Part shown: piece by piece, positions 1-16,800 of the stretch
Layout: each line of letters starts with the position of its first letter
How positions within the stretch are numbered: position 1 is the stretch's first letter
Origin: a virus
Lineage: Duplodnaviria > Heunggongvirae > Uroviricota > Caudoviricetes
IMG/VR virus record: IMGVR_UViG_2896595138_000005
Span: 1-20,870 of that record
Strand: one strand, 5' to 3'
DNA: 20,870 nucleotides
Notes under the pieces: model-generated
Databases searched by the model: none
The model's input: the letters and a program-made list of their open reading frames with translations, nothing else
Told to the model about the DNA's origin: nothing
Position numbers and translations under genes: made by a program

Positions 1-819
1 ATGTGTCAGGTATTTGGTGTATCCAGGAGCGGTTATTACAACCGGGTACAGCATGAACCCTCAGACAGAAAACAAAGTGATGAGCGGCTAAAACTGGAGA
101 TTAAGGTGGCACATATCCGCACTCGCGAAACATATGGAACCCGGCGGCTCCAGACGGAGCTGGCAGAGAATGGCATCATCGTTGGTCGTGACCGACTGGC
201 ACGTCTTCGTAAGGAGCTAAGGCTACGCTGTAAGCAGAAACGCAAGTTCAGAGCGACTACGAACCCGAACCACAATCTGCCAGTTGCGCCAAATCTGCTG
301 AACCAGACGTTCGCTCCTACAGCACCAAATCAGGTCTGGGTGGCGGACCTGACGTATGTTGCCACACAGGAGGGATGGTTGTACCTCGCTGGCATCAAAG
401 ATGTTTATACGTGCGAAATTGTCGGCTACGCCATGGGAGAGCGCATGACAAAAGAGCTGACAGGTAAAGCCCTGTTTATGGCGCTCAGGAGCCAGCGCCC
501 ACCTGCCGGGCTAATCCACCACTCTGATCGAGGTTCACAGTACTGCGCATACGATTACCGGGTCATACAGGAGCAGTTTGGTCTGAAAACATCAATGTCG
601 CGTAAAGGTAACTGTTACGACAACGCTCCGATGGAAAGCTTCTGGGGAACGCTGAAAAATGAGAGCCTGAGCCACTATCGTTTTAATAACCGGGATGAAG
701 CCATCTCAGTAATACGGGAATACATTGAGATTTTCTACAATCGTCAGCGTCGTCACTCTCGTCTGGGGAATATCTCCCCGGCAGCCTTCAGGGAAAAATA
801 TCATCAGATGGCTGCTTAA
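1..819 (+). CDS. IS3-family transposase OrfB (DDE integrase catalytic domain)
   Basis: 272-aa ORF with recognisable IS3 OrfB features ([24 protein letters not shown]); same protein as 17139..17957. Confidence 0.85.
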   Translation: MCQVFGVSRSGYYNRVQHEPSDRKQSDERLKLEIKVAHIRTRETYGTRRLQTELAENGIIVGRDRLARLRKELRLRCKQKRKFRATTNPNHNLPVAPNLLNQTFAPTAPNQVWVADLTYVATQEGWLYLAGIKDVYTCEIVGYAMGERMTKELTGKALFMALRSQRPPAGLIHHSDRGSQYCAYDYRVIQEQFGLKTSMSRKGNCYDNAPMESFWGTLKNESLSHYRFNNRDEAISVIREYIEIFYNRQRRHSRLGNISPAAFREKYHQMAA

Positions 820-862
820 AAAAAGAACAAATGGTAGTGTCCGCTATTGCCAGTACACCTCA
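1..862 (+). mobile_element. IS3-family insertion sequence (IS600-like), partial right-hand copy; window begins inside the element
   Basis: 1..862 matches 17139..18000 of the complete copy base for base where compared; the two diverge immediately after ...CCAGTACACCTCA. Confidence 0.85.
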
Positions 863-6531: not shown

Positions 6532-7957
6532 TTTTTATGCGCCGCCCCATAGCATCGAGGCAGAGCAGGCGGTGATTGGTGGATTGCTTCTGGATGATGA
6601 CAGCAGTGAGCGCGTCCAGAAGGTTCTTGCGATGCTGAAGCCTGACTCATTTTACAGCCGGCCACACAAAATCCTTTTCGAAGAAATAACCAGAATGCAC
6701 CGGGAGCAAAAGCCAGTAGATGGCCTGACGCTTTTCGATGAACTGGAGCGTAAATCGTTAACGGCGTCTGTTGGCGGTTTTGCTTATATCGCTGAGATCG
6801 CAAAGAACACGCCAAGCGCCGCAAACATCGTTGCCTATGCAATGCAGGTTCGCGAAACCGCAATGGAACGCTACGCCATCAACCGCATGACTGAAGCGAC
6901 GGAATTGCTCTATTCCCGCAACGGAATGACTGCAACGCAGAAGTACGAAGCTATTCAGGCGATTTTCACGCAACTGACAGACCATGCAAAAACCGGATCA
7001 CGTCGCGGCCTTCGCTCATTTGGTGAGGTCATGGAAGACTGGGTTAGCGACCTTGAGAAGCGTTTTGACCCGTCAGGCGAACAACGAGGAATGAGCACAG
7101 GGATCCCATCGCTGGACAGGATGCTGTCACCGAAAGGTCTGGTGAAAGGCTCTCTGTTTGTCATTGGCGCTCGCCCTAAGATGGGGAAAACGACGCTATA
7201 CAGCCAGATGGCAATCAACTGCGCAGTGCATGAGAAAAAGCCCGCTCTGATGTTCAGCCTTGAAATGCCAGGTGATCAGATACTGGAAAAACTGGTAGGG
7301 CAGAAGTCTGGTGTTAACCCGAATATTTTTTACCTTCCGGCGACAAATGACGCCGATGACGGCTATCAGGGTGATTACGATGGTGACTTCAACAGGGCGA
7401 TCGAAACAGCCAATCGCTTGAGTGAAATCGACCTGCTTTACATCGACGACACGCCGGGATTATCTCTGGCTCAAATCGTCAGCGAAAGCCGTCGAATCAA
7501 GCGAGAAAAAGGATGTGTTGGCATGATTCTGGTCGATTACCTGACACTAATGACCGCTGAAAAGGCCGATCGCAACGACCTTGCCTACGGCATGATCACC
7601 AAAGGACTGAAGAACCTTGCCAAAGAGCTTGATTGCGTTGTTGTGCTTCTGACGCAGCTTAACCGCGCACTGGAAAGCCGAACCAATAAACGCCCATTAC
7701 CAAGTGACTCACGAGATACAGGGCAGATTGAACAGGATTGCGATTATTGGGTGGGGATCCATCGTGAAGGTGCTTTTGATGACAGTGTTCCACCTGGTGA
7801 AACCGAACTAATCCTTCGTCTCAATCGTCATGGCAATACCGGCACGGTGTATTGCATTCAGGCAAATGGAGCTATTTATGACACAGACCAACAGTCTGCT
7901 GAAATGCGCCGCCGTGAACGCGAGGAACCGCAGTCCAAGAAGAAAGGAGGATTCTGA
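6521..7957 (+). CDS. replicative DNA helicase, DnaB family (P-equivalent)
   Basis: DnaB N-terminal signature PPHSIEAEQAVIGGLLLD and Walker A GARPKMGKT; GAGGGTG RBS before the ATG at 6521. Confidence 0.85.
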   Translation: MTDNFYAPPHSIEAEQAVIGGLLLDDDSSERVQKVLAMLKPDSFYSRPHKILFEEITRMHREQKPVDGLTLFDELERKSLTASVGGFAYIAEIAKNTPSAANIVAYAMQVRETAMERYAINRMTEATELLYSRNGMTATQKYEAIQAIFTQLTDHAKTGSRRGLRSFGEVMEDWVSDLEKRFDPSGEQRGMSTGIPSLDRMLSPKGLVKGSLFVIGARPKMGKTTLYSQMAINCAVHEKKPALMFSLEMPGDQILEKLVGQKSGVNPNIFYLPATNDADDGYQGDYDGDFNRAIETANRLSEIDLLYIDDTPGLSLAQIVSESRRIKREKGCVGMILVDYLTLMTAEKADRNDLAYGMITKGLKNLAKELDCVVVLLTQLNRALESRTNKRPLPSDSRDTGQIEQDCDYWVGIHREGAFDDSVPPGETELILRLNRHGNTGTVYCIQANGAIYDTDQQSAEMRRREREEPQSKKKGGF

Positions 7958-7985
7958 TGACCATCTACATCACTGAGCTAATAAC

Positions 7986-8017
7986 AGGCCTGCTGGTAAT
8001 CGCAGGCCTTTTTATTT
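7986..8017 (+). terminator. rho-independent terminator (tR2-like) between helicase and ninB
   Basis: AGGCCTGC-loop-GCAGGCCT stem followed by TTTTTATTT. Confidence 0.6.
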
Positions 8018-8032
8018 GGGGAGAGGGAAGTC

Positions 8033-8473
8033 ATGAAAAAACTAACCTTTGAAATTCGATCTCCAGCACATCAGCAAAACGCTATTCACGCGGTACAGCA
8101 AATTCTTCCAGACCCAACCAAACCAATCGTAGTAACCATTCAGGAACGCAACCGCAGCTTAGACCAGAATCGAAAGCTTTGGGCTTGCCTTGGTGACGTC
8201 TCTCGTCAGGTTGAATGGCATGGTCGCTGGCTGGATGCAGAAAGCTGGAAGTGTGTGTTTACCGCGGCATTAAAGCAGCAGGACGTTGTTCCTAACCTTG
8301 CCGGGAATGGCTTTGTGGTAATAGGCCAGTCAACCAGCAGGATGCGTGTAAGCGAATTTGCGGAGTTATTAGAGCTTATACAGGCATTCGGTACAGAGCG
8401 TGGCGTTAAGTGGTCAGACGAAGCGCGACTGGCTCTGGAGTGGAAAGCGCGATGGGGAGATCGGGCTGCATGA
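8033..8473 (+). CDS. ninB: NinB recombination protein
   Basis: 146 aa with the characteristic N-terminus [21 protein letters not shown] and [10 protein letters not shown]. Confidence 0.8.
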
Positions 8474-9159
8474 CTATCAAATCAAATACGCCAGCACACG
8501 ACAAGGACTGCTGGCAAACGCCACTTTGGCTTTTTGATGCGCTGGATATTGAGTTTGGATTCTGGCTGGATTCGGCAGCGAGCGACAAAAATGCTCTGTG
8601 CGCTCACTGGCTAACTGAGGCCGACGACGCGCTCAATTCTGAGTGGGTAAGCCACAGTGCAATCTGGAATAACCCACCGTACAGCAATATCAGGCCGTGG
8701 GTGGAAAAAGCCGCTGAGCAGTGTATACAACAGCGACAGACGGTAGTTATGCTTGTGCCAGAGGATATGTCAGTCGGATGGTTCAGCAAGGCTCTGGAGA
8801 GTGTTGACGAAGTTCGCATCATCACTGATGGACGGATTAATTTTATCGAACCATCGACAGGGCTGGAGAAAAAGGGAAACAGTAAAGGCTCAATGCTGCT
8901 GATTTGGCGACCGTTCATCAGTCCCCGGCGAATGTTTACTACCGTATCCAAAGCGGCATTGATGGCGATCGGGCAGGGCGGCATGAGGCGACAGCGACGA
9001 AGTATTACCGACATAATCTGTGAAAACTGCAAATACCTTCCAACGAAACGCTCCAGAAATAAACGCAAGCCAATCCCAAAAGAATCTGACGTAAAAACCT
9101 TCAACTACACGGCTCACCTGTGGGATATCCGGTGGCTAAGACATCGTGCGAGGAAATGA
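8470..9159 (+). CDS. phage DNA N6-adenine methyltransferase (Dam type) with C-terminal basic extension
   Basis: NPPY catalytic motif; ATG at 8470 overlaps the ninB stop (ATGA); last ~60 residues are basic and not typical of the family. Confidence 0.7.
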
Positions 9160-9200
9160 CTATTTATCCGGTGCGCCGCCAGAATGACGGCGCGGTGTGG

Positions 9201-9509
9201 TTAAACGAAGCGGATCTGGAGTTTTTTTCCAGTAGCGCGGGCGAATTTTTTTAGTGTGGCAAATGATGGGCCGCTGATACCTGATGCGAGATTACTTTCC
9301 ATTCTGGTGATCGCGGTCGCTTTTGTTCCCATTCGCTCGGCAACTTCAGCCTGAGTTAAGCCAGCTTCTTTGCGTGCTGCCAGCATTTCATCAAGCAGTG
9401 CGAATTCGTCAGCGATAGCGTCGTATTCTGCTTTAAAAGCCGGGTCTTCCATCCATTTGGCTGCCATTTCGTCGTGTGTCATGGTGGGGAGAGTGCGTTT
9501 ACCAGTCAT
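9201..9509 (-). CDS. HigA-like HTH antitoxin (XRE family)
   Basis: HTH segment LTQAEVAERMGTKATAITRME; sits downstream of and overlaps the toxin gene. Confidence 0.7.
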   Translation of the reverse strand: MTGKRTLPTMTHDEMAAKWMEDPAFKAEYDAIADEFALLDEMLAARKEAGLTQAEVAERMGTKATAITRMESNLASGISGPSFATLKKFARATGKKLQIRFV

Positions 9510-9828
9510 GCTTAACCTCCTTCATTCTGGTTTCAGCTTTCTTGCGTTCGGCTGGCGGTGTTTTCTGCGTTTTCTTTACAAAACTATGCAGCATGATGAT
9601 GCGTTTCCCTGTCAGAGTGCAGTAAAAAACACGCGCGATCCCATCGTTGCCTTTAATTCTGAGTTCGAAAAGTCCGTCACCAAAGGCGCTGGTGTGAGGT
9701 TCTCCGAGATTGCTGCCATATATCTTCATACGTTCAACGAGATGTTGGTATCGGGCACGCATACTCAATGGAAGCCGATCGACTTCCAGCCTTACATCTT
9801 CACTGTAGTATTCGATAGTGTAGTTCAT
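9499..9828 (-). CDS. HigB/RelE-ParE family toxin (Gp49-like)
   Basis: Conserved C-terminal pattern LHSFVKKTQKTPPAERKKAETRMKE; start uncertain, the frame opens at 9918. Confidence 0.65.
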   Translation of the reverse strand: MNYTIEYYSEDVRLEVDRLPLSMRARYQHLVERMKIYGSNLGEPHTSAFGDGLFELRIKGNDGIARVFYCTLTGKRIIMLHSFVKKTQKTPPAERKKAETRMKEVKHDW

Positions 9829-9949
9829 AGGTATCAACATAACAAAATCGTTATATGCATTCAAGGCCTGTAGTTGACGACAACACATATCCGGGCTATA
9901 TTCCTCATACGCCAGCAAAATCTGGCGTCGGGATTGAGACCCCGGATGT

Positions 9950-10420
9950 TTACGGAGCGATATGAGACGCGCCCGCGTCTTTTTTCATATCGTTTGCACA
10001 GTCACATTCGCGATTTATGGTGGGCTGTGTGGGGGAGCCGAAACCGATAACCATTTCTTTGTTGAAGAGACAAAGCGAGCAGGCCAGTCCGATCGCGGTC
10101 CAACTGAGCCCCATTTCACGGGATTTTTCGGTAATACCATTCTCCCGATTGCTCCAGCGTTCCATAATCCAGTGGATCCACTCCTCCTGCTTAGGGAAGA
10201 GTAAAAACGGAATGGTCACCGGCAGGCCATAATCAATATTACGCGGGTCCGTTGTCATGCCCCAGCCGATAATGAACTGAGCCGGGTTGGTACGGTAAAA
10301 CTGTTTTAGTGCAGGCAATATTTCAGGATTCTGGCGAATGCGCTGTAGGCGTTCCATCCGCCATTCAAAAACCATCTGGTAATCAGGATGTTTAAAATCG
10401 AAGGGGAATGGTAACGGCAT
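9950..10420 (-). pseudogene. terminase large subunit, N-terminal fragment only
   Basis: Directly follows terS; only 156 codons where several hundred are expected; no portal, head or tail genes follow. Confidence 0.6.
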
Positions 10421-10422
10421 AC

Positions 10423-10977
10423 TTAGCCCATCATTTTTCTATACACCTCTGCGGCCTGCTCAGGCGTTAATTTGGTAATTTCTGTTCTGACTGGTCCTCC
10501 GTCAGCGCCAGTCACTTCATTTTTGACGTTGTCTTTAAACGCCTGAACAGAAACATGACGCCCAAGCAACTCAAGGTTTTTAACCTTATCAGGCCATTTG
10601 ATTTTCTTCAGAAGTGCGGCGCTATCTGCGGATACCATCTCCACGACATCCATTCCTGATAGCGTTGTGCGCCATACCTTAGGCCAGTCTTTAATGGGCT
10701 TTAGCTCACCGTTTTGCAGGAGAATGTCGAGCACATCCATCTGGTCGATTTCAACCAATCTACGAAGAACATAGGCGGCATCTATACCCGTCTGCTCAAC
10801 GCGGGCGGATTTAAGTTCAGCAACGAATTTTTGAACATTAACATTTGCTAATAATCGAGATGCCTGCTCATTGGCGGTCTTCTCGCTGTAGCCCGCCCTG
10901 ATAGCTGCCTGTGTGCCGTTCAGATCTTTCAGGTACTCACGGGCAAACAGCTCTTGTTTGTCGGTGAGCTTTGCCAT
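10423..10977 (-). CDS. terminase small subunit (P27 family)
   Basis: N-terminus [35 protein letters not shown] is the family signature. Confidence 0.8.
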
Positions 10978-11078
10978 TATTTGTGCTCCGTTTATCCGTT
11001 AAAAGGGATATCAGTTAAGTTATCCCGTGTAGGGTATAAGCCATTATCAAGCCCACCAGTAGATGGGCTTTGTAATGG

Positions 11079-11336
11079 CTACTTCGCTTTTGCTTCCGCT
11101 CGCTTACGCCGGCGCTCTTCTTTCCTCTCGGCTTTTGCCATGTCCATGAATGTCTGCATGATCGAGTTCCGCATCATGTAGCTAACAAAGTGATGATTGA
11201 CACAGCCGTTGAGGCGCAGCTGCTCGCCAAACTCATCCACCGAGGCCAATGCTTCCATCATGCCCTTCTCGCCTTTCATGAACTCTGAGAAGTCGCGCCC
11301 CGCTCTGGAGGCGCATTCAATGACACGATCACTCAT
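11079..11336 (-). CDS. hypothetical protein with basic C-terminal tail
   Basis: 85 aa ending KAERKEERRRKRAEAKAK; start overlaps the stop of the KilA-N gene (ATGA). Confidence 0.45.
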   Translation of the reverse strand: MSDRVIECASRAGRDFSEFMKGEKGMMEALASVDEFGEQLRLNGCVNHHFVSYMMRNSIMQTFMDMAKAERKEERRRKRAEAKAK

Positions 11337-11830
11337 CCCGGAAGCCCGGGGATCGTTATCTGCAGCTGGTTAGCCAGGGAGTTAATCTCAGCGACCAACA
11401 CTGGCTTCGTATAGCGCCATGCCGCCAGCCCTTGTCCACAGAAGCTCGCCATATCTTTTTTCTGATCAAACTCATGACACTTCATATTGAGCTGCGCACT
11501 TAAGCTGTTGCGATGCTGAAGTTCTCCGGTGAAGTAGTCATCCAGGACTTTATAGGCTGCATATTTAAATCCGGGGTTTAGCCATGCTGCATAATCATAA
11601 GCAACAAACTTCCCGCCATATGTTCCACCGTGTACACCGCGCTCAGTAAAAACCACAGATTCGTGGTTTTTCTCCAGCTCGGCTAAGAACTCTTTGGTCT
11701 GCTTGTTTCGCAGGTAGTGGTACGGAGATTCAGATTCACTTTTACCACTGGCTTTCCACATATCAGTGAGGCAGATCATTCCTGATTCATCAACACGGAT
11801 CGGTGTATTAAAAAGCGTGATTGCTTTCAT
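11333..11830 (-). CDS. KilA-N domain protein
   Basis: N-terminal KilA-N-like segment (ITLFNTPIRVDESGMICLTDMWKASGK). Confidence 0.6.
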   Translation of the reverse strand: MKAITLFNTPIRVDESGMICLTDMWKASGKSESESPYHYLRNKQTKEFLAELEKNHESVVFTERGVHGGTYGGKFVAYDYAAWLNPGFKYAAYKVLDDYFTGELQHRNSLSAQLNMKCHEFDQKKDMASFCGQGLAAWRYTKPVLVAEINSLANQLQITIPGLPG

Positions 11831-11977
11831 GGCGTCTTTACCTTTTAGAAAGATGAGCCTGTTCGCACAGAAAAGCCGTCCCCGAGATGGTCGCCACCAT
11901 ATACGGCAATTCTCAGGCTCAGCTTTCTGAAAGACTCGGGGTTTATATGCGCTGCGATGCGCGGTTTACTGCGGACA

Positions 11978-12003
11978 TATAAAAGCCCCGCAAGTGCGAG
12001 GCT
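11978..12003 (-). terminator. candidate rho-independent terminator after Rz
   Basis: GC-rich imperfect stem (AGCCTCGCA / TGCGGGGCT) followed by TTTTAT on the minus strand. Confidence 0.35.
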
Positions 12004-12035
12004 CATTAAATGGACTTTGTGATTTGCAAAAAAAT

Positions 12036-12503
12036 TTATTTCAGGCACTGAGTCCTGATGTACTCCTGAAGCATTCTCAATGCTGTCTGGTCGCTGATGA
12101 TTCCGTCCCGGATACCGAGAACGTTTCGTCCAGCAACTGGAGAGAGTTCGACGGTGGCATCATTGCCCATGCCGGAGGCGCTGGAGGTTTCGGCTGAGGA
12201 TGGCACAGGGCATTTTCCTTTGACGAGCACCCGACCACCATTATCAAGCTTGCGCCGAAGAGCATCATTTTCAGCTTTCGCATTGGCTAACTCCTTCGTG
12301 TATTTAGCATCGAGTGCATCAGCAGCACGCTGGCGCTGCTGCATGTCAGTAATGGTTGCGTTCGCCAGCTTCAGTTCTCTTGCGTTTTTGTCGCGCTGCT
12401 CTTTGTAGGTAATGGCGTTATCACGGTAATGATTAACAGCCCATGACAGGCGGACGATGATGCAGATAACCAGAGCGGAGATAATCGCGGTGACTCTGCT
12501 CAT
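12036..12503 (-). CDS. Rz: Rz i-spanin
   Basis: N-terminus [17 protein letters not shown] with a transmembrane segment, then an [19 protein letters not shown] region. Confidence 0.75.
12077..12283 (-). CDS. Rz1: Rz1 o-spanin lipoprotein, embedded in Rz in another frame
   Basis: Lipobox VVGC after a signal peptide, then a proline-rich segment (PKPPAPPAW). Confidence 0.7.
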
Positions 12504-12996
12504 TGCTGCCCCACAAACAGACTTCACGCTCAATCTCACGACGGGTCATCAGCCCTTTCCATTGCTTACCGCCAGCATATGTCCAGCGACGTAGCTGGTC
12601 ACATGCGCCTTTGATATCGCCCTGGTTTATTTTGCGAAGAAGCGTCGATGTTCTGAAATTGCCAGCGCCCACGTTGTAAACGAACGAGTAAAGAGCGCCG
12701 CGCGTTGTTTCCGGTATATCGACTTTGATGTACGGGTTAATTTGTCTGGCGACAGTGGCAAGGTCTTTATTCAGGAGAGCTTTGCATTCTGCTTCGGTAT
12801 ACGTTTTACCAGGCATGATGTCTTTTCCGGTGTGTCCGTGACATACAGTCCATACACCAATGATATCTTTGTATGGTATGTAGCTGACACCTTCCAGACC
12901 ATCGTTACCACCTGGGCCAGTGATTAACACAGATGCTATAGCAACAGCCCCGCCACCAATAGCAACTGCAACAGCCTTGCGTAATGATGGCGACAT
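12433..12996 (-). CDS. R: SAR endolysin (phage 21 R-type lysozyme)
   Basis: N-terminal Gly/Ala-rich signal-anchor ([20 protein letters not shown]); start overlaps the holin stop (ATGA); 3' end overlaps the Rz start by about 70 bp. Confidence 0.8.
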
Positions 12997-13211
12997 TATT
13001 CACCTCTCGCAGCCTTACGCTTGTCTTCTCTTAATTTGAAATACAGATTCGTCAGATAAGTCAGAAGCCCCAGAAGCAGACTTCCCAGCACACCAATCGC
13101 AGCCCACTGTGATGGACTGACCTGATCCAACCACTGCAAAAACCAGTAGCCGGCACTGCCGGCGGAGGTGCCGTAGGCAATGCCCGTTGAAATTTTGTCC
13201 ATGGATTTCAT
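12996..13211 (-). CDS. S: class II holin (phage 21 S-type pinholin)
   Basis: Dual-start MKSMDK motif and two transmembrane segments; start at 13211 inside the longer ORF-track frame. Confidence 0.75.
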
Positions 13212-13327
13212 AGCCTCACCTCCGCAAATAACGGATGGCGTAGTTCTTATATTGGGAAGGGAAAAAAAAGGCCGCAGCGTAACTGTCACTGATGAATTCA
13301 GGATAGCCAGTGGCTACGGCTCAGTTA

Positions 13328-13403
13328 TGGTGCTGGTTAACGGACTTGAACCGCTACCCATTCGCTTACAAGGCGACTGCTCTACCATTAGAGCTAAACC
13401 AGC
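13328..13403 (-). tRNA. tRNA-like gene, anticodon UGU (Thr) by hand folding
   Basis: 76 nt with 7-bp acceptor stem, GCTC/GAGC D-stem, CTTGTAA anticodon loop, TTCAAGT T-loop and encoded CCA. Confidence 0.5.
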
Positions 13404-13408
13404 ATATT

Positions 13409-13483
13409 TGGCGGGACAGCGTGGACTCGAACCACGATAAGAAGGTTAACAGCCTTCCGTAATGACCTTTATACGACTGACCC
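13409..13483 (-). tRNA. tRNA-like gene, anticodon GUU (Asn) by hand folding
   Basis: 75 nt with perfect GAAGG/CCTTC anticodon stem, CTGTTAA loop, CGTGG-TTCGAGT-CCACG T-arm and encoded CCA; one mismatch each in acceptor and D stems. Confidence 0.45.
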
Positions 13484-13672
13484 AAATAAAAAATCCCGAA
13501 AGCAGGCTCTATTCCTATGTGCTCTCGAGTTTATGATGCGCATGTCAGTGCGCTTAGCGAAAAACGCCGTAAACCCTCGCCCGACAGGGCGGGGAGCAGT
13601 CACAACTTAAAGATGAGGTGGGTAAAAAACCGAAAGAATGTGAACGGATATAAACCTGCCATTCTTGAGTCA

Positions 13673-13701
13673 AATTTACCCAACTTTATTCAAAAAGTCA
13701 A
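13673..13701 (-). promoter_or_regulatory. late promoter pR' (lambda-like)
   Basis: Minus-strand TTGACT, 17-nt spacer, TAAATT, within TTGACTTTTTGAATAAAGTTGGGTAAATTTGACTCAA. Confidence 0.6.
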
Positions 13702-13743
13702 TATCATGCCGTTAAGATGTTGCCATCCATGGCAATCATGCCG

Positions 13744-14367
13744 CTAACGTGTGACCGCATTCAAAATGTTGTCTGCGATTGACTCTTCTTTGTGGCATTG
13801 CACCACCAGAGCGTCATACAGCGGCTTAACAGTGCGTGACCATGTGGGTTGGGTGAGGTTTGGGATTAGCATCGTTACAGCGCGATATGCTGCACTTGCT
13901 GGCATCCTTGAATAGCCGACACCTTTGCATCTTCCGCACTCTTTCTCGACAACTCTCCCCCACTGCTCTGTTTTGGCTATATCAACTGCCAGACCTGTTC
14001 CGTGGCAATCTCTGCATCTTGCGCCCGGCGTCGCGGCACTACGGCAATAATCCGCATAAGCGAATGTTGCGAGCACTTGCAGTACCTTTGCCTTAGTATT
14101 TCCTTCGAGCTTTGCCACACCACGGTATTTCCCCGATACCTTGTGTGCAAATTGCATCAGATAGTTGATAGCCTTTTGTTTGTCGTTCTGGCTGAGTTCA
14201 TGCTTACCGCAAAATGCAGCCATTCCGAATCCGGCTTGTGATTGCGCCATCCCCATAGCAGCCATCACATCAGTACCGGAAAGAGAGTCAGAAGCCGTAG
14301 CCCGTGGTGAGTCGCTCATCATCGGGCTTTTTAGCGAATGAAATTTAGCTACGCTTTCGAGTCTCAT
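13744..14367 (-). CDS. Q: late antiterminator Q (lambda Q type)
   Basis: 207 aa with a CxxC...CxxC zinc-binding motif (CRDCHGTG...CGRCKG); recalled as near-identical to lambda Q. Confidence 0.8.
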   Translation of the reverse strand: MRLESVAKFHSLKSPMMSDSPRATASDSLSGTDVMAAMGMAQSQAGFGMAAFCGKHELSQNDKQKAINYLMQFAHKVSGKYRGVAKLEGNTKAKVLQVLATFAYADYCRSAATPGARCRDCHGTGLAVDIAKTEQWGRVVEKECGRCKGVGYSRMPASAAYRAVTMLIPNLTQPTWSRTVKPLYDALVVQCHKEESIADNILNAVTR

Positions 14368-14552
14368 CGTCTTCCCCTCTTGCCCTGTTTGACCATCAGG
14401 ACGCCGTTAACTATTACGTGACGCTCGCCTTTGCTGTCTCGGTTGTACTTGAGCACTGTTCCTCTTGCGCAGGAAAGCATCCTCGCCACTTCGGTCTGAT
14501 TGCCTCGTGTCTGGATAAGAAGCTCTGGTATCGTTTGAATTGTGGCGTTCAT
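14364..14552 (-). CDS. ninH: NinH-like small DNA-binding protein
   Basis: Segment GNQTEVARMLSCARGTV resembles lambda NinH. Confidence 0.6.
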   Translation of the reverse strand: MNATIQTIPELLIQTRGNQTEVARMLSCARGTVLKYNRDSKGERHVIVNGVLMVKQGKRGRR

Positions 14553-14911
14553 ACGTTCTCCAGTTCGGTGATTTTTATTCCAAGCCTTCCGCCTGGTACT
14601 TTCACACCACGAATTACGCGAATGTCATCGAATTGCTCGTCGTCTTCCGCAAATCCGGCGTGGATAAGAGAGTCGAGTAGCCCCTTCAGGATGTTGTCGA
14701 GGTCGCGGCGGCGGGAGTCTGGAACGTCTGCGATGACTTTGATGCGGAGTCGTGCTTTGGTGAAAATATCTAACTTGAGTTGGCGGATGATTTGCTGAAC
14801 GTCTTTTCGGTATTTCTGGCCTTTATAGCTGATGTAGTATTGGCTTCCCCGTCTTCGCCAGTAGGTGTTCAGCGACGGTGGGTATGGAAGCACAAACTGA
14901 TATTCGTTCAT
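14549..14911 (-). CDS. rusA: RusA-family Holliday junction resolvase
   Basis: 120 aa with the RRRDLDN motif characteristic of RusA. Confidence 0.8.
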   Translation of the reverse strand: MNEYQFVLPYPPSLNTYWRRRGSQYYISYKGQKYRKDVQQIIRQLKLDIFTKARLRIKVIADVPDSRRRDLDNILKGLLDSLIHAGFAEDDEQFDDIRVIRGVKVPGGRLGIKITELENV

Positions 14912-15198
14912 GGCTTAATCTTCCCCTCCTTCAGCAGTATCGCCTGCGTCCTGATCACGCCTTCGAGGTGGTAAAGTCTGGCGTCTTTGTTGTCGAGGTT
15001 ATGGGTGCGTCGGTCGATTTCATCGTGACACGCGCTACAAGCCCATGCGCCGATCAGGTCGTCAGGCTTCATTCCCGTTCCGCAAATTCCAGCCATCCGG
15101 TAATGTGCCAGAACTGTAGTTTCAGGATTGCCATTGCATACGCCGTAAATACGTACCTGGCATTCTCTGCCGCGCGCTTCTTTGCGTAAGTTAGCCAT
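14908..15198 (-). CDS. YbcO-like protein (DUF1364)
   Basis: 96 aa, cysteine- and histidine-rich, immediately upstream of rusA as in DLP12. Confidence 0.55.
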   Translation of the reverse strand: MANLRKEARGRECQVRIYGVCNGNPETTVLAHYRMAGICGTGMKPDDLIGAWACSACHDEIDRRTHNLDNKDARLYHLEGVIRTQAILLKEGKIKP

Positions 15199-15926
15199 TA
15201 AGCAGCCTCCCCTGTTACTTTCAGCATTCCGTTATAGAGCAGCTTTCTGGTCAGCCACTGTTGGCCACGCCCGGTGATTTTTGTGGTGAACGATATCTGT
15301 ATTCCGTGATTTGTGTTGACTGCTGTTTCTTTCACTGTGAAATAGCCGCGATCCATATATTCCTGCATTGGCACATTGCGCCGGGAACCTGAAGCAATAA
15401 GGATTTTGTGATCGCGCATCCACGCAAACAGTTTGTTTGGACCAATTCCAACAACCTTTGCAAAGTTTCCAATCAAAATTCCGCTGGCCTCGCTAACGCG
15501 ATCGGCAAACTCAACTTTAGGTGCTGCGAGAGCAAGCTGTTTCTCCAGTTCAGCCTTCTGGTCTTCAAGGTCGGCCGCAAGGCGCAATGCCTCAGAAAAG
15601 GTTTGTGGGATTTTCGCGGTTGCCCCTTCAAGCTCTCGCCAACGGTCAACAAGACGAGCGGTGAATTCCGGCGACAACTGGGCAACGACAATAATGCTGT
15701 CGCGCTTACCTTGTTCGCCTTCGAAGACGTAATGCTCGTACTGAACATTGAACCCTAAGTTATTGATTCTTTCGGAAACCTCAAATTGAGGATGCCGGAT
15801 AACACCATTTTTAGCCAGCGTTTCGATGGTACGTTTCACATTGTCATGACGCTTACCCACCAACTCAGCGATTTCAATGCTGGTCATTTTGATGGCGTTG
15901 CTATTTATCAGCTCGTTCATTGTCAT
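15198..15926 (-). CDS. antirepressor (Rha-like N-terminus, KilAC-type C-terminus)
   Basis: N-terminal TSIEIAELVGKRHDNVKRTIETL; two-domain layout typical of phage Ant proteins. Confidence 0.65.
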   Translation of the reverse strand: MTMNELINSNAIKMTSIEIAELVGKRHDNVKRTIETLAKNGVIRHPQFEVSERINNLGFNVQYEHYVFEGEQGKRDSIIVVAQLSPEFTARLVDRWRELEGATAKIPQTFSEALRLAADLEDQKAELEKQLALAAPKVEFADRVSEASGILIGNFAKVVGIGPNKLFAWMRDHKILIASGSRRNVPMQEYMDRGYFTVKETAVNTNHGIQISFTTKITGRGQQWLTRKLLYNGMLKVTGEAA

Positions 15927-15951
15927 GTCCTCTCATATTGAAAATTCAGCA

Positions 15952-15975
15952 ATAAAAAACCCAGCCGAAGCTGGG
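15952..15975 (-). terminator. rho-independent terminator between the ORF6N gene and the antirepressor gene
   Basis: Minus-strand CCCAGC-TTCG-GCTGGG followed by TTTTTTATT. Confidence 0.55.
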
Positions 15976-15994
15976 TCGTTGCGTTGGCAATCTG

Positions 15995-16672
15995 TCAGTA
16001 GTGATGTAGTGAAGGAGGTAATTCTTTGTTCTTAAGTCTTACCCATGCAGAAAGATTCGTTGGTCCGTCTGGCTCATTAATATCAACATCTCGTGTGTGA
16101 TTGATTAAAACGTCTCTCGCCATTCCGATAACATACGAGAACTCATGACCGTAGTCGTGGCATCTGCCGGAATAGTTAGACTGAATTTGTCTTAGCGCCG
16201 GATACAGTTCGCGGAATAATGCCTGTGAGCGGTTGGCATAATCCCACAACCATACCAGACTGTTTGCATCTTTTGCAGAAAGCTCGCTGGTTTTCTTCTC
16301 GTGATGACCTGCGCTTTTCGAAGTCTGGCTGAAATAGCAGTCTTCCAGTTTTTCGAACACGTCCCATGCCTGATCGGTTTCGAGCATCTTCGCGTGACGG
16401 GCTGCGCCTCGTTCTGTCCAGAGGATGAGCGAGCGGGCATTTTTACCAACTAACCCGATTGTTTCGGGTCTGTTCTTAAACTCGCGTAATTCGTTTTTTT
16501 CAATTTTAAAGTAATGCTTTCCTACCACGAATCGCATCGTGTTGTTCAGAAAATTATCAGAAATGTTTTTGATTTTTGTTCCGTATAACTGCGCCAGAAG
16601 TTCAGTTGTAATAACGGGGATCTGGTTGTGGGTGATTGCAGGAAGAGTGTCGACAGAAATTTGAGTGAGCAT
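15995..16672 (-). CDS. ORF6N-domain phage protein
   Basis: Start assigned to MLTQ (GGAG RBS 8 nt upstream); the longer ORF-track frame runs into the IS; the IS left end lies about 65 bp upstream of the assigned start. Confidence 0.5.
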
Positions 16673-16800
16673 AACGATAACTCCGTACATTTGGTCATTA
16701 TCGCCACCTTCTGGTCTCAATAATCTGGTGGCGAGCTGAGGTAGCCTGAGTTTAACGGACACTCCTTCCTGAAATAGAATGGCATCAGAAGGAGCTAATA

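Follow-up and report, generated by a model that had tools for sequence, protein, structure and literature searches.

What is the pair of small overlapping genes that lies beside a broken terminase gene in a decayed prophage, and does its position there carry any meaning? We addressed this question in a stretch of 20,870 nucleotides (nt) from a virus of the Caudoviricetes (IMG/VR record IMGVR_UViG_2896595138_000005, positions 1 to 20,870; hereafter the window), in which two neighbouring minus-strand open reading frames (ORFs) stand next to a fragment of terL, the gene for the large terminase subunit. The initial annotation had described them as a toxin-first, HigB/HigA-like toxin-antitoxin (TA) module at 9201-9918, located exactly where terL breaks off. 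Our analysis supports the existence and identity of this module: the two small genes are a real and intact TA pair of a well-known family, far beyond what would be expected by chance. We put the probability at roughly 0.8 that they form a bicistronic type II TA system of the gp49/Tad-Ata family, in the 'HigB-like' branch of RelE/ParE toxins, an estimate that covers both the identity and the general mechanism. The module is carried here as cargo of the early-right (nin) region of a lambdoid prophage, antisense to the replication and nin genes, and its adjacency to terL is an accident of prophage decay, in which an inversion brought the 5' fragment of terL to the module. The features of the pair and of its control region are as follows.

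9499 to 9828, minus strand: toxin gene, 109 amino acids (aa), encoding a gp49/Tad-type (HigB-like) protein of RelE fold, as assigned by PF05973, phrog_2523, the family alignment and an AlphaFold (AF2) model
9201 to 9509, minus strand: antitoxin gene, 102 aa, encoding a protein with an XRE-type helix-turn-helix (HTH), as assigned by HTH_3 and the match to HigA of 6AF3
9516 to 9522, minus strand: Shine-Dalgarno sequence AAGGAGG of the antitoxin gene, read from the sequence and lying within the 3' end of the toxin gene
9836 to 9864, minus strand: putative TA promoter, with -35 box TTGAAT (9864..9859), a 17-nt spacer and -10 box TATGTT (9841..9836)
9839 to 9854, no strand assigned: putative operator palindrome ATAAC-N6-GTTAT, overlapping the -10 box and recognised by its conservation across loci

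The mechanical ORF list gives the pair as two neighbouring minus-strand frames, 9499..9918 (139 aa, TTG start) and 9201..9509 (102 aa). However, in an alignment of 37 toxin homologues (61-94% identity) all 37 begin with M-N/K-Y-T-I at the position of the window's ATG at 9828, and the NCBI annotation of a near-identical Escherichia coli locus (RMDEC465, locus L001 in our comparison) likewise gives a toxin product of 109 aa. Both lines of evidence place the true toxin start at ATG 9828 and make the start at 9918 a mechanical extension of the ORF. Thus, the interval first proposed holds for the two ORFs as such, while the toxin N-terminus that it implied does not stand. Positions 9829-9918 are not toxin-coding and instead hold the TA promoter and, on the opposite strand, the promoter and 5' hairpin of an isrK-like small RNA (sRNA). 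At the other end of the toxin gene, its stop codon (TAA, 9501..9499) lies beyond the antitoxin ATG (9509..9507), which means that the two genes overlap by 11 nt, and the antitoxin ATG is preceded at a distance of 6 nt by the perfect AAGGAGG. The GAGG core of this sequence is retained in the homologues from Methylospira, Glaciimonas and Arsenophonus, in which the toxin gene is followed by an HTH gene with an overlap that is likewise 11 nt long.

The family of the toxin is identified by profile and structure searches. In Pfam the protein matches Gp49 (PF05973; E=1.5e-25, a score of 89.5 bits where the cutoff is 23.9, with 88 of the 90 profile positions covered), and this is the sole family reported at E<=0.01: there is no match to the canonical HigB families PF05015 and PF09907, to PF06296 or to the ParE family PF05016. 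In PHROGs it aligns over its full length with phrog_2523 (2.6e-45); the NCBIfam models for RelE/ParE toxins and HTH antitoxins are matched by toxin and antitoxin only below threshold. Among proteins of solved structure the best single-sequence match is HigB from Streptococcus pneumoniae (6AF3_A, E=1.5e-5), which a search with the family profile finds at 1.2e-8 together with HigB1 from Mycobacterium tuberculosis (7NBU, 7AWK). The AlphaFold model of the toxin, built on the family alignment, has a predicted local distance difference test score (pLDDT) of 90.5 and a predicted template modelling score (pTM) of 0.82; it shows a beta-alpha-alpha-beta4-alpha order of elements, with the C-terminal helix and the RelE/BECR fold. 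In a Foldseek search with this model the HigB structures rank first (6AF4/6AF3 at template modelling (TM) scores of 0.72-0.79, with 6AF4 at 0.76-0.79, and 7AWK/7NBU at 0.71-0.74; probability 1.00 for 6AF4, 7AWK and 7NBU), and YafQ, RelE and YoeB come next. The name 'HigB/HigA-like' is acceptable only as a loose name for gp49-family toxins, in the way in which it has been used for S. pneumoniae HigB and M. tuberculosis HigB1-3 (PMC11980606). Understood in this sense, the proposed identity, a gp49 toxin of the RelE/ParE superfamily combined with an XRE-type HTH antitoxin, is borne out by the profile searches, in which each of the two proteins has a significant match. A 2025 review describes the PF_gp49 group as ribosome-dependent mRNases with the gene order toxin then antitoxin (PMC11980606).

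The residues expected of such an enzyme are also in place. In the profile alignment, R57, R66, F83 and K85 of the toxin correspond to R68, R73, F90 and K92 of S. pneumoniae HigB, mutation of which lowers RNase activity (PMC7984235). In addition, E55, R57, R66, K85, Q88 and K89 correspond to E66, R68, R77, K95, Q98 and K99 of M. tuberculosis HigB1 (HigB-TAC), which line the mRNA pocket on the ribosome, and the substitution K95A abolishes both toxicity and cleavage in that protein (PMC9098466). All of the active-site residues aligned, save Q88, are invariant across the 37 homologues.

The antitoxin matches HTH_3 in Pfam (E=3.4e-11) and, over its full length, the transcriptional regulator family phrog_1373 in PHROGs (2e-37). 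Its best match in the PDB is HigA (6AF3_B), with E=1e-3 for the single sequence and 3.4e-7 with the family profile, and M. tuberculosis HigA2 and HigA3 appear among the later matches of the profile search. Hence, 6AF3 is the best sequence match for both proteins, each to its corresponding partner, and toxin and antitoxin point to the same solved complex. The antitoxin consists of an N-terminal helical region, an XRE-type HTH (approximately residues 44-98) and a short C-terminal strand, and its AlphaFold model, based on a 30-sequence alignment, reaches a pLDDT of 60 and a pTM of 0.39.

The DNA upstream of the toxin suggests how expression of the pair may be controlled. A block composed of TTGAAT, a 17-nt spacer, TATGTT, 7 nt and the ATG is common to seven loci that have unrelated DNA farther upstream, and each of the eight distinct upstream sequences compared has ATAAC-N6-GTTAT (in Methylospira its TAAC/GTTA core) at a distance of 23 to 30 nt from the start codon; these sequences include Beta- and Gammaproteobacteria outside the enterics. 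In Glaciimonas the palindrome runs into a perfect TATAAT, 7 nt before the toxin ATG. A simple promoter scan reported no minus-strand TA promoter, and we therefore place the promoter by cross-locus conservation. No Shine-Dalgarno sequence precedes the toxin in the window or in any of the upstream loci compared. Taken together, the palindrome, the spacing between -10 box and ATG and the missing Shine-Dalgarno sequence, conserved across loci, lead us to infer an autoregulated promoter from which a leaderless and poorly translated toxin message is made along with a well-translated, translationally coupled antitoxin; the toxin mRNA itself is probably leaderless. If so, an allele of the type found in phage PhiR5_2 (L002 5661, L010 4628; toxin 72% identical), which has ATA at the conserved toxin start and for which annotators call a 76-aa fragment, should have its toxin silenced and its antitoxin kept. 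Two other palindromes, at 9909-9928 and 9965-9980, were considered as antitoxin operators and rejected, as they belong to the isrK-like sRNA, of which they form the 5' hairpin and the terminator, and are absent upstream of the module in phage POCJ13.

Relatives of both proteins are numerous, with 2875 found for the toxin and 667 for the antitoxin at E<=0.001. Both genes are under purifying selection: in pairwise comparison with four enterobacterial alleles, the ratio of nonsynonymous to synonymous substitution (dN/dS) is 0.02-0.27 in the toxin gene and 0.0-0.11 in the antitoxin gene, and narrower ranges of 0.02-0.16 and 0.03-0.11, respectively, were also recorded. Of 5426 complete E. coli genomes, 31 contain the module, in each case on the chromosome. 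Viable phages carry it as well: the Shigella Shiga toxin (Stx) phages POCJ13 and 75/02, at 92.8% identity, and Escherichia phage PhiR5_2, whose annotation names it HigA/HigB. Its position varies, in that it follows ninE, precedes ninB or comes after a DUF4222 gene, and in six out of six lambdoid loci from E. coli and Shigella (L001-L004, L009, L010) it runs antisense to the early-right operon. In its distribution the module is like other mobile cargo, an accessory of the early regions of prophages that is unrelated to the packaging genes; a literature search on TA modules in lambdoid nin regions returned nothing relevant.

The locus is also mosaic. DNA identity to the PhiR5_2-type allele (L010) breaks off midway through the toxin gene (query 1-434), and the divergent N-terminal half of the toxin (residues 1-50) is accompanied by a divergent segment of the antitoxin (residues 16-23; AAKWMEDP in the window, VEKMLSNP in L010). 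This hints that the two co-divergent parts may contact each other. A separate observation concerns a contig of the Logan assembly SRR23531017 (L008 1605-1912) that shares the joint between terL' and the toxin described below, and in which the antitoxin carries an out-of-frame insertion near codon 17 and is called as 83 aa next to an intact toxin, either as a real lesion or through an assembly error.

Comparison with characterized systems places the module close to several of them without making it identical to any. The gp49/gp48 pair of the temperate phage N15, whose gp49 is the namesake of PF05973, is likewise toxin-first and shares 46% identity over 91 aa with the toxin and 38% over 74 aa with the antitoxin. 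However, N15 is a linear plasmid-prophage for which stabilization is obviously useful, whereas the prophage here is an integrated lambdoid one, and the N15 genes overlap by a single base (1465-1776, 1776-2063) compared with 11 nt in the window. S. pneumoniae HigBA (6AF3/6AF4) gives the best sequence match for both partners as well as the best structural match for the toxin, retains the same catalytic residues and resembles our pair in the short strand that follows the HTH of HigA; its promoter contains palindromic operators (PMC7984235), to which the putative operator of our pair would correspond. It differs in that identity is only about 20%, the N-terminus of HigB is longer (141-aa chain) and four palindromes are reported there against the one conserved palindrome here. 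M. tuberculosis HigB1 (HigB-TAC; 7AWK/7NBU) shares the Pfam family, the fold, the C-terminal helix and six of the eight mRNA-pocket residues, including the essential K95 (K85 in our toxin), but belongs to a three-part toxin-antitoxin-chaperone (TAC) module with a SecB-like chaperone. At the locus studied here we found no third TAC gene, the next gene being ninE, which is convergent and 41 nt from the antitoxin, and the antitoxin has no chaperone-addiction tail and ends right after the HTH. Finally, the canonical HigBA systems (Rts1, E. coli K-12, Vibrio cholerae HigB-1/2) are similar in their toxin-first order, RelE-fold ribosome-dependent RNase and HTH antitoxin but belong to other Pfam families (PF05015, PF09907, PF06296), and V. 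cholerae HigB2 shows weak structural similarity to the toxin (Foldseek E=8e-3, TM 0.52).

The position of terL beside the pair is explained by the following features.

10033 to 16738, no strand assigned: inverted segment of 6.7 kb containing terL', terS, Rha/KilA-N, the lysis genes, two tRNAs, Q, rusA and two antirepressor genes
10033 to 10043, no strand assigned: left inversion joint, an 11-nt microhomology GGGAGCCGAAA common to the intergenic DNA and to terL at about codons 126-129
9950 to 10420, minus strand: chimeric ORF terL', made of terL codons 1-129 (10420..10033) followed by 27 unrelated intergenic codons
16737 to 18000, plus strand: insertion sequence (IS) IS600, which adjoins the inverted segment at its right end
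from before position 1 to 862, plus strand: second, direct copy of IS600

The terL' ORF has a weak match to the terminase large subunit family phrog_2 in PHROGs. When positions 9100-10450 were compared by megablast with the 5426 complete E. coli genomes, none contained the whole stretch, and three contained ninE, antitoxin, toxin and the next 215 nt contiguously, up to window position 10043. In the intact prophage of RMDEC465 the same pair (99.5% nt identity) lies between ninE and antirepressor genes. The order there is ninB, dam, ninE, antitoxin and toxin on the other strand, two antirepressor genes, rusA, Q, two tRNAs, lysis genes, Rha, terS, a full 1620-nt terL and portal, with terL 6.5 kb from the module. 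Window positions 7957-10043 align with L001 7846-9945, and positions 10033-16738 align with L001 16690-9985 in reverse at 96-99% identity, so that the window reads as the layout of the RMDEC465 prophage in which 6.7 kb have been turned round. Between the original breakpoints 39 nt (L001 9946-9984) have been lost and are found nowhere in the window. The same joint is present in CP026845.1, CP026846.1, the draft contig LPTQ01000137.1 and one Logan read-set assembly, and as it recurs in these records, the rearrangement is inherited and not an assembly artefact. CP026845.1 is 100% identical to the window over 12.5 kb, and CP026846.1 has different IS600 insertions. We considered IS600 as the cause of the inversion and rejected it: the left joint contains no IS and only the 11-nt microhomology, and CP026846.1 shares the joint with IS600 elsewhere. 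The left joint most likely arose by illegitimate recombination. Its distance from the toxin ATG, upstream of which it lies, is 205-215 nt, and some 130 nt separate it from the conserved promoter block; the module was therefore left untouched. Consequently, the earlier statement that the module sits exactly where terL breaks is right in that the two are neighbours and wrong in its precision, since the terL homology ends at 10033-10043. Checking relatives with an intact terL, as the initial annotation had suggested, showed the module to be present in RMDEC465 with terL complete and 6.5 kb away, and the viable phages POCJ13, 75/02 and PhiR5_2 carry it too, which speaks against the implied link to the terL break.

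How, then, would such a module work, and what else could it be? If the pair is a type II TA system of the gp49 family, the toxin would enter the ribosomal A site, cleave the mRNA being translated and thereby stop growth, and a labile antitoxin would bind and neutralize it. An antitoxin dimer would place its HTH on ATAAC-N6-GTTAT over the -10 box and repress the operon, while poor translation of the leaderless toxin together with the strong Shine-Dalgarno sequence and the 11-nt overlap of the antitoxin would keep the antitoxin in excess. Should the supply of antitoxin fail, the toxin would be freed; this could happen if the DNA is lost, if an infecting phage shuts down host transcription or if antisense transcription is strong. 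Several points weigh against this view. Family membership alone is no proof of toxicity, since HigB2 and HigB3 of M. tuberculosis belong to the same Pfam family and are non-toxic (PMC9098466). We found no experiments on this subfamily in the literature searched, and the AlphaFold model of the antitoxin is too poor for a fold search or for defining its toxin-binding region. With 8 of 12 consensus positions matched, the putative TA promoter would be weak, and geometry alone suggests the leaderless start. The non-toxic M. tuberculosis proteins, together with the alleles of PhiR5_2 and UPEC-245U in which ATA replaces the toxin ATG and which show that the toxin can be dispensable, would fit a gp49-like protein that is inert, having never been toxic or being toxic no longer, with the HTH protein acting as a plain phage transcription regulator. 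We nevertheless consider this improbable, given the invariant active-site residues, the strong purifying selection on the toxin and a gene overlap and operator layout that are conserved across bacterial classes. That the toxin could be a ParE-like gyrase poison and not an mRNA endonuclease is barely credible: membership of the common RelE/ParE superfamily and distant Foldseek matches to ParE2 (E about 2e-2) point in this direction, but PF05016 is not matched, the closest structural matches are to RNases, and the toxin keeps the catalytic residues of these enzymes.

What such a TA system does for its carrier is less certain. It is quite possible, although we hold this tentatively, that the module is a selfish addiction cassette which stabilizes its own DNA, here an IS-ridden prophage remnant. 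The N15 gp49/gp48, SXT and pAMI2 Tad-Ata homologues are reported as stabilizing TA systems (Dziewit 2007, as cited in PMC2701414 and PMC5906591). Moreover, the direct IS600 copies flank a remnant of 15.9 kb in a deletion-prone arrangement, and the module is 100% conserved in four assemblies that share the joint while IS600 cut further into the surrounding DNA. On the other hand, this persistence could reflect mere recent common ancestry, and post-segregational killing is generally weak for single-copy chromosomal modules. Almost as likely, and held equally tentatively, is a role in prophage-encoded abortive infection, in which an incoming phage would stop host transcription or destabilize the antitoxin and the freed RNase would halt translation. 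A gp49-family HigB from a toxin-antitoxin-chaperone system is described as mediating abortive infection (PMC11980606; bioRxiv 10.1101/2024.02.24.581848), the pair is accessory and occupies varying early-region positions in several prophages, and toxin residues 49-99 resemble the C-terminal domain of the PADLOC candidate NsnC (E=8e-10). Yet PADLOC-DB v2 gave no match to a full system and otherwise only weak generic HTH matches, the locus lacks a chaperone or sensor gene, and the module is rare, with the 31 genomes mentioned above. The idea that the module inserted at the terL truncation, caused it or was selected because of it has physical proximity in its favour and nothing more, and we regard it as next to negligible: ninE, antitoxin, toxin and isrK are arranged in the same way where terL is intact and 6.5 kb distant, the microhomology joint lies inside a c4-like RNA gene some 205 nt from the toxin ATG, and it is the terL fragment that moved and not the module.

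The inversion also cut a c4-like RNA gene that follows an isrK-like sRNA gene, the promoter of which stands back to back with the TA promoter.

9874 to 9902, plus strand: sigma-70-like promoter of the isrK-like sRNA, with TTGACG, 17 nt and TATATT (10 of 12 consensus positions)
9909 to 9985, plus strand: gene for an isrK-like Hfq-binding sRNA, the leader of an antirepressor operon (Rfam RF01394, 70.6 bits against a gathering threshold of 50, full length 1-77)
10013 to 10043, plus strand: remnant of a c4-like antisense RNA, its first 31 nt, cut by the inversion joint

The isrK-like promoter ends 6 nt before the start of the Rfam isrK match, and the sRNA has an intrinsic terminator at 9964-9981 followed by a T run. 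An isrK match is also found in L001, L002, L004 and L010. In L001, isrK is followed by a C4 antisense RNA (RF01695, 75.9 bits, 9915-9999) and then by the antirepressor genes. Both breakpoints of the inversion (L001 9945 and 9985) are located within this C4-like gene, the middle 39 nt of which were lost, and its remaining pieces are now at window positions 10013-10043 and 16724-16738. The antirepressor genes now lie at 16672..15995 and 15920..15198 on the minus strand, 6 kb away behind IS600. Judged from the alignment, the rearrangement broke, besides terL, an isrK/c4-like/antirepressor control unit and severed the link between its parts. The immI region of phage P1 resembles this isrK-C4-antirepressor arrangement. 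The arrangement in L001 also resembles the isrK-orf45-anrP unit of Gifsy-1 (PMC4825925).

Antirepressor genes with c4-like or isrK-like RNAs are found repeatedly within 0.1-2 kb of the module, even in Methylospira and Glaciimonas. The RNA types are isrK and C4 in L001, L002, L004 and L010 and sRNA-Xcc1 in L003, L009, L011 and L012, and L004 contains two tandem isrK-C4-Rha units. This recurrent proximity to antirepressor genes might mean that the module and these genes insert at a common hot spot, or else that they are linked in function. In three of four distinct enterobacterial contexts the module stands back to back with an isrK/c4-antirepressor unit, and c4-like RNA/antirepressor units occur within 2 kb of it in POCJ13 and in two distant proteobacteria. 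We think it very unlikely that the module is functionally coupled to the control of prophage induction through antisense transcription. Were it coupled, strong early-right transcription, upon induction or from a superinfecting relative, could interfere with transcription of the module, silence it in this way and free the RNase, which would then act as a built-in timer or abortive switch. In the remnant, which has lost c4 and the late genes, the module would thereby become a pure kill switch.

The module as such is of a known kind, is already annotated publicly and has no unusual architecture: RefSeq labels the exact proteins 'type II toxin-antitoxin system RelE/ParE family toxin' and 'helix-turn-helix', and PF05973 comprises about 22,000 Pfam entries (PMC11980606). 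We believe that the value of the analysis lies in the corrections to the annotation, namely a toxin of 109 and not 139 aa on the minus strand, an isrK-like sRNA as its neighbour, the inversion and the severed c4-like/antirepressor unit. In addition, the conserved layout of a probably leaderless toxin and its putative operator offers a cheap entry for work on enteric gp49-type toxins.

A few further observations concern the surrounding prophage. The two IS600 copies that bracket the 15.9-kb remnant are identical and form a substrate for deletion by recombination, and a relative of IS66-family transposases lies at about 19.3-20.5 kb on the minus strand. The genes dam (N6-adenine methyltransferase) and ninE, which are separate and overlapping in RMDEC465, are fused in the window into one 249-aa ORF (8410-9159, plus strand) by an 11-nt deletion at about 8974. 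Finally, tRNA-Thr(TGT) and tRNA-Asn(GTT) are located at 13328-13483 on the minus strand, with Q on one side and the holin gene on the other, an arrangement shared with the intact relative.

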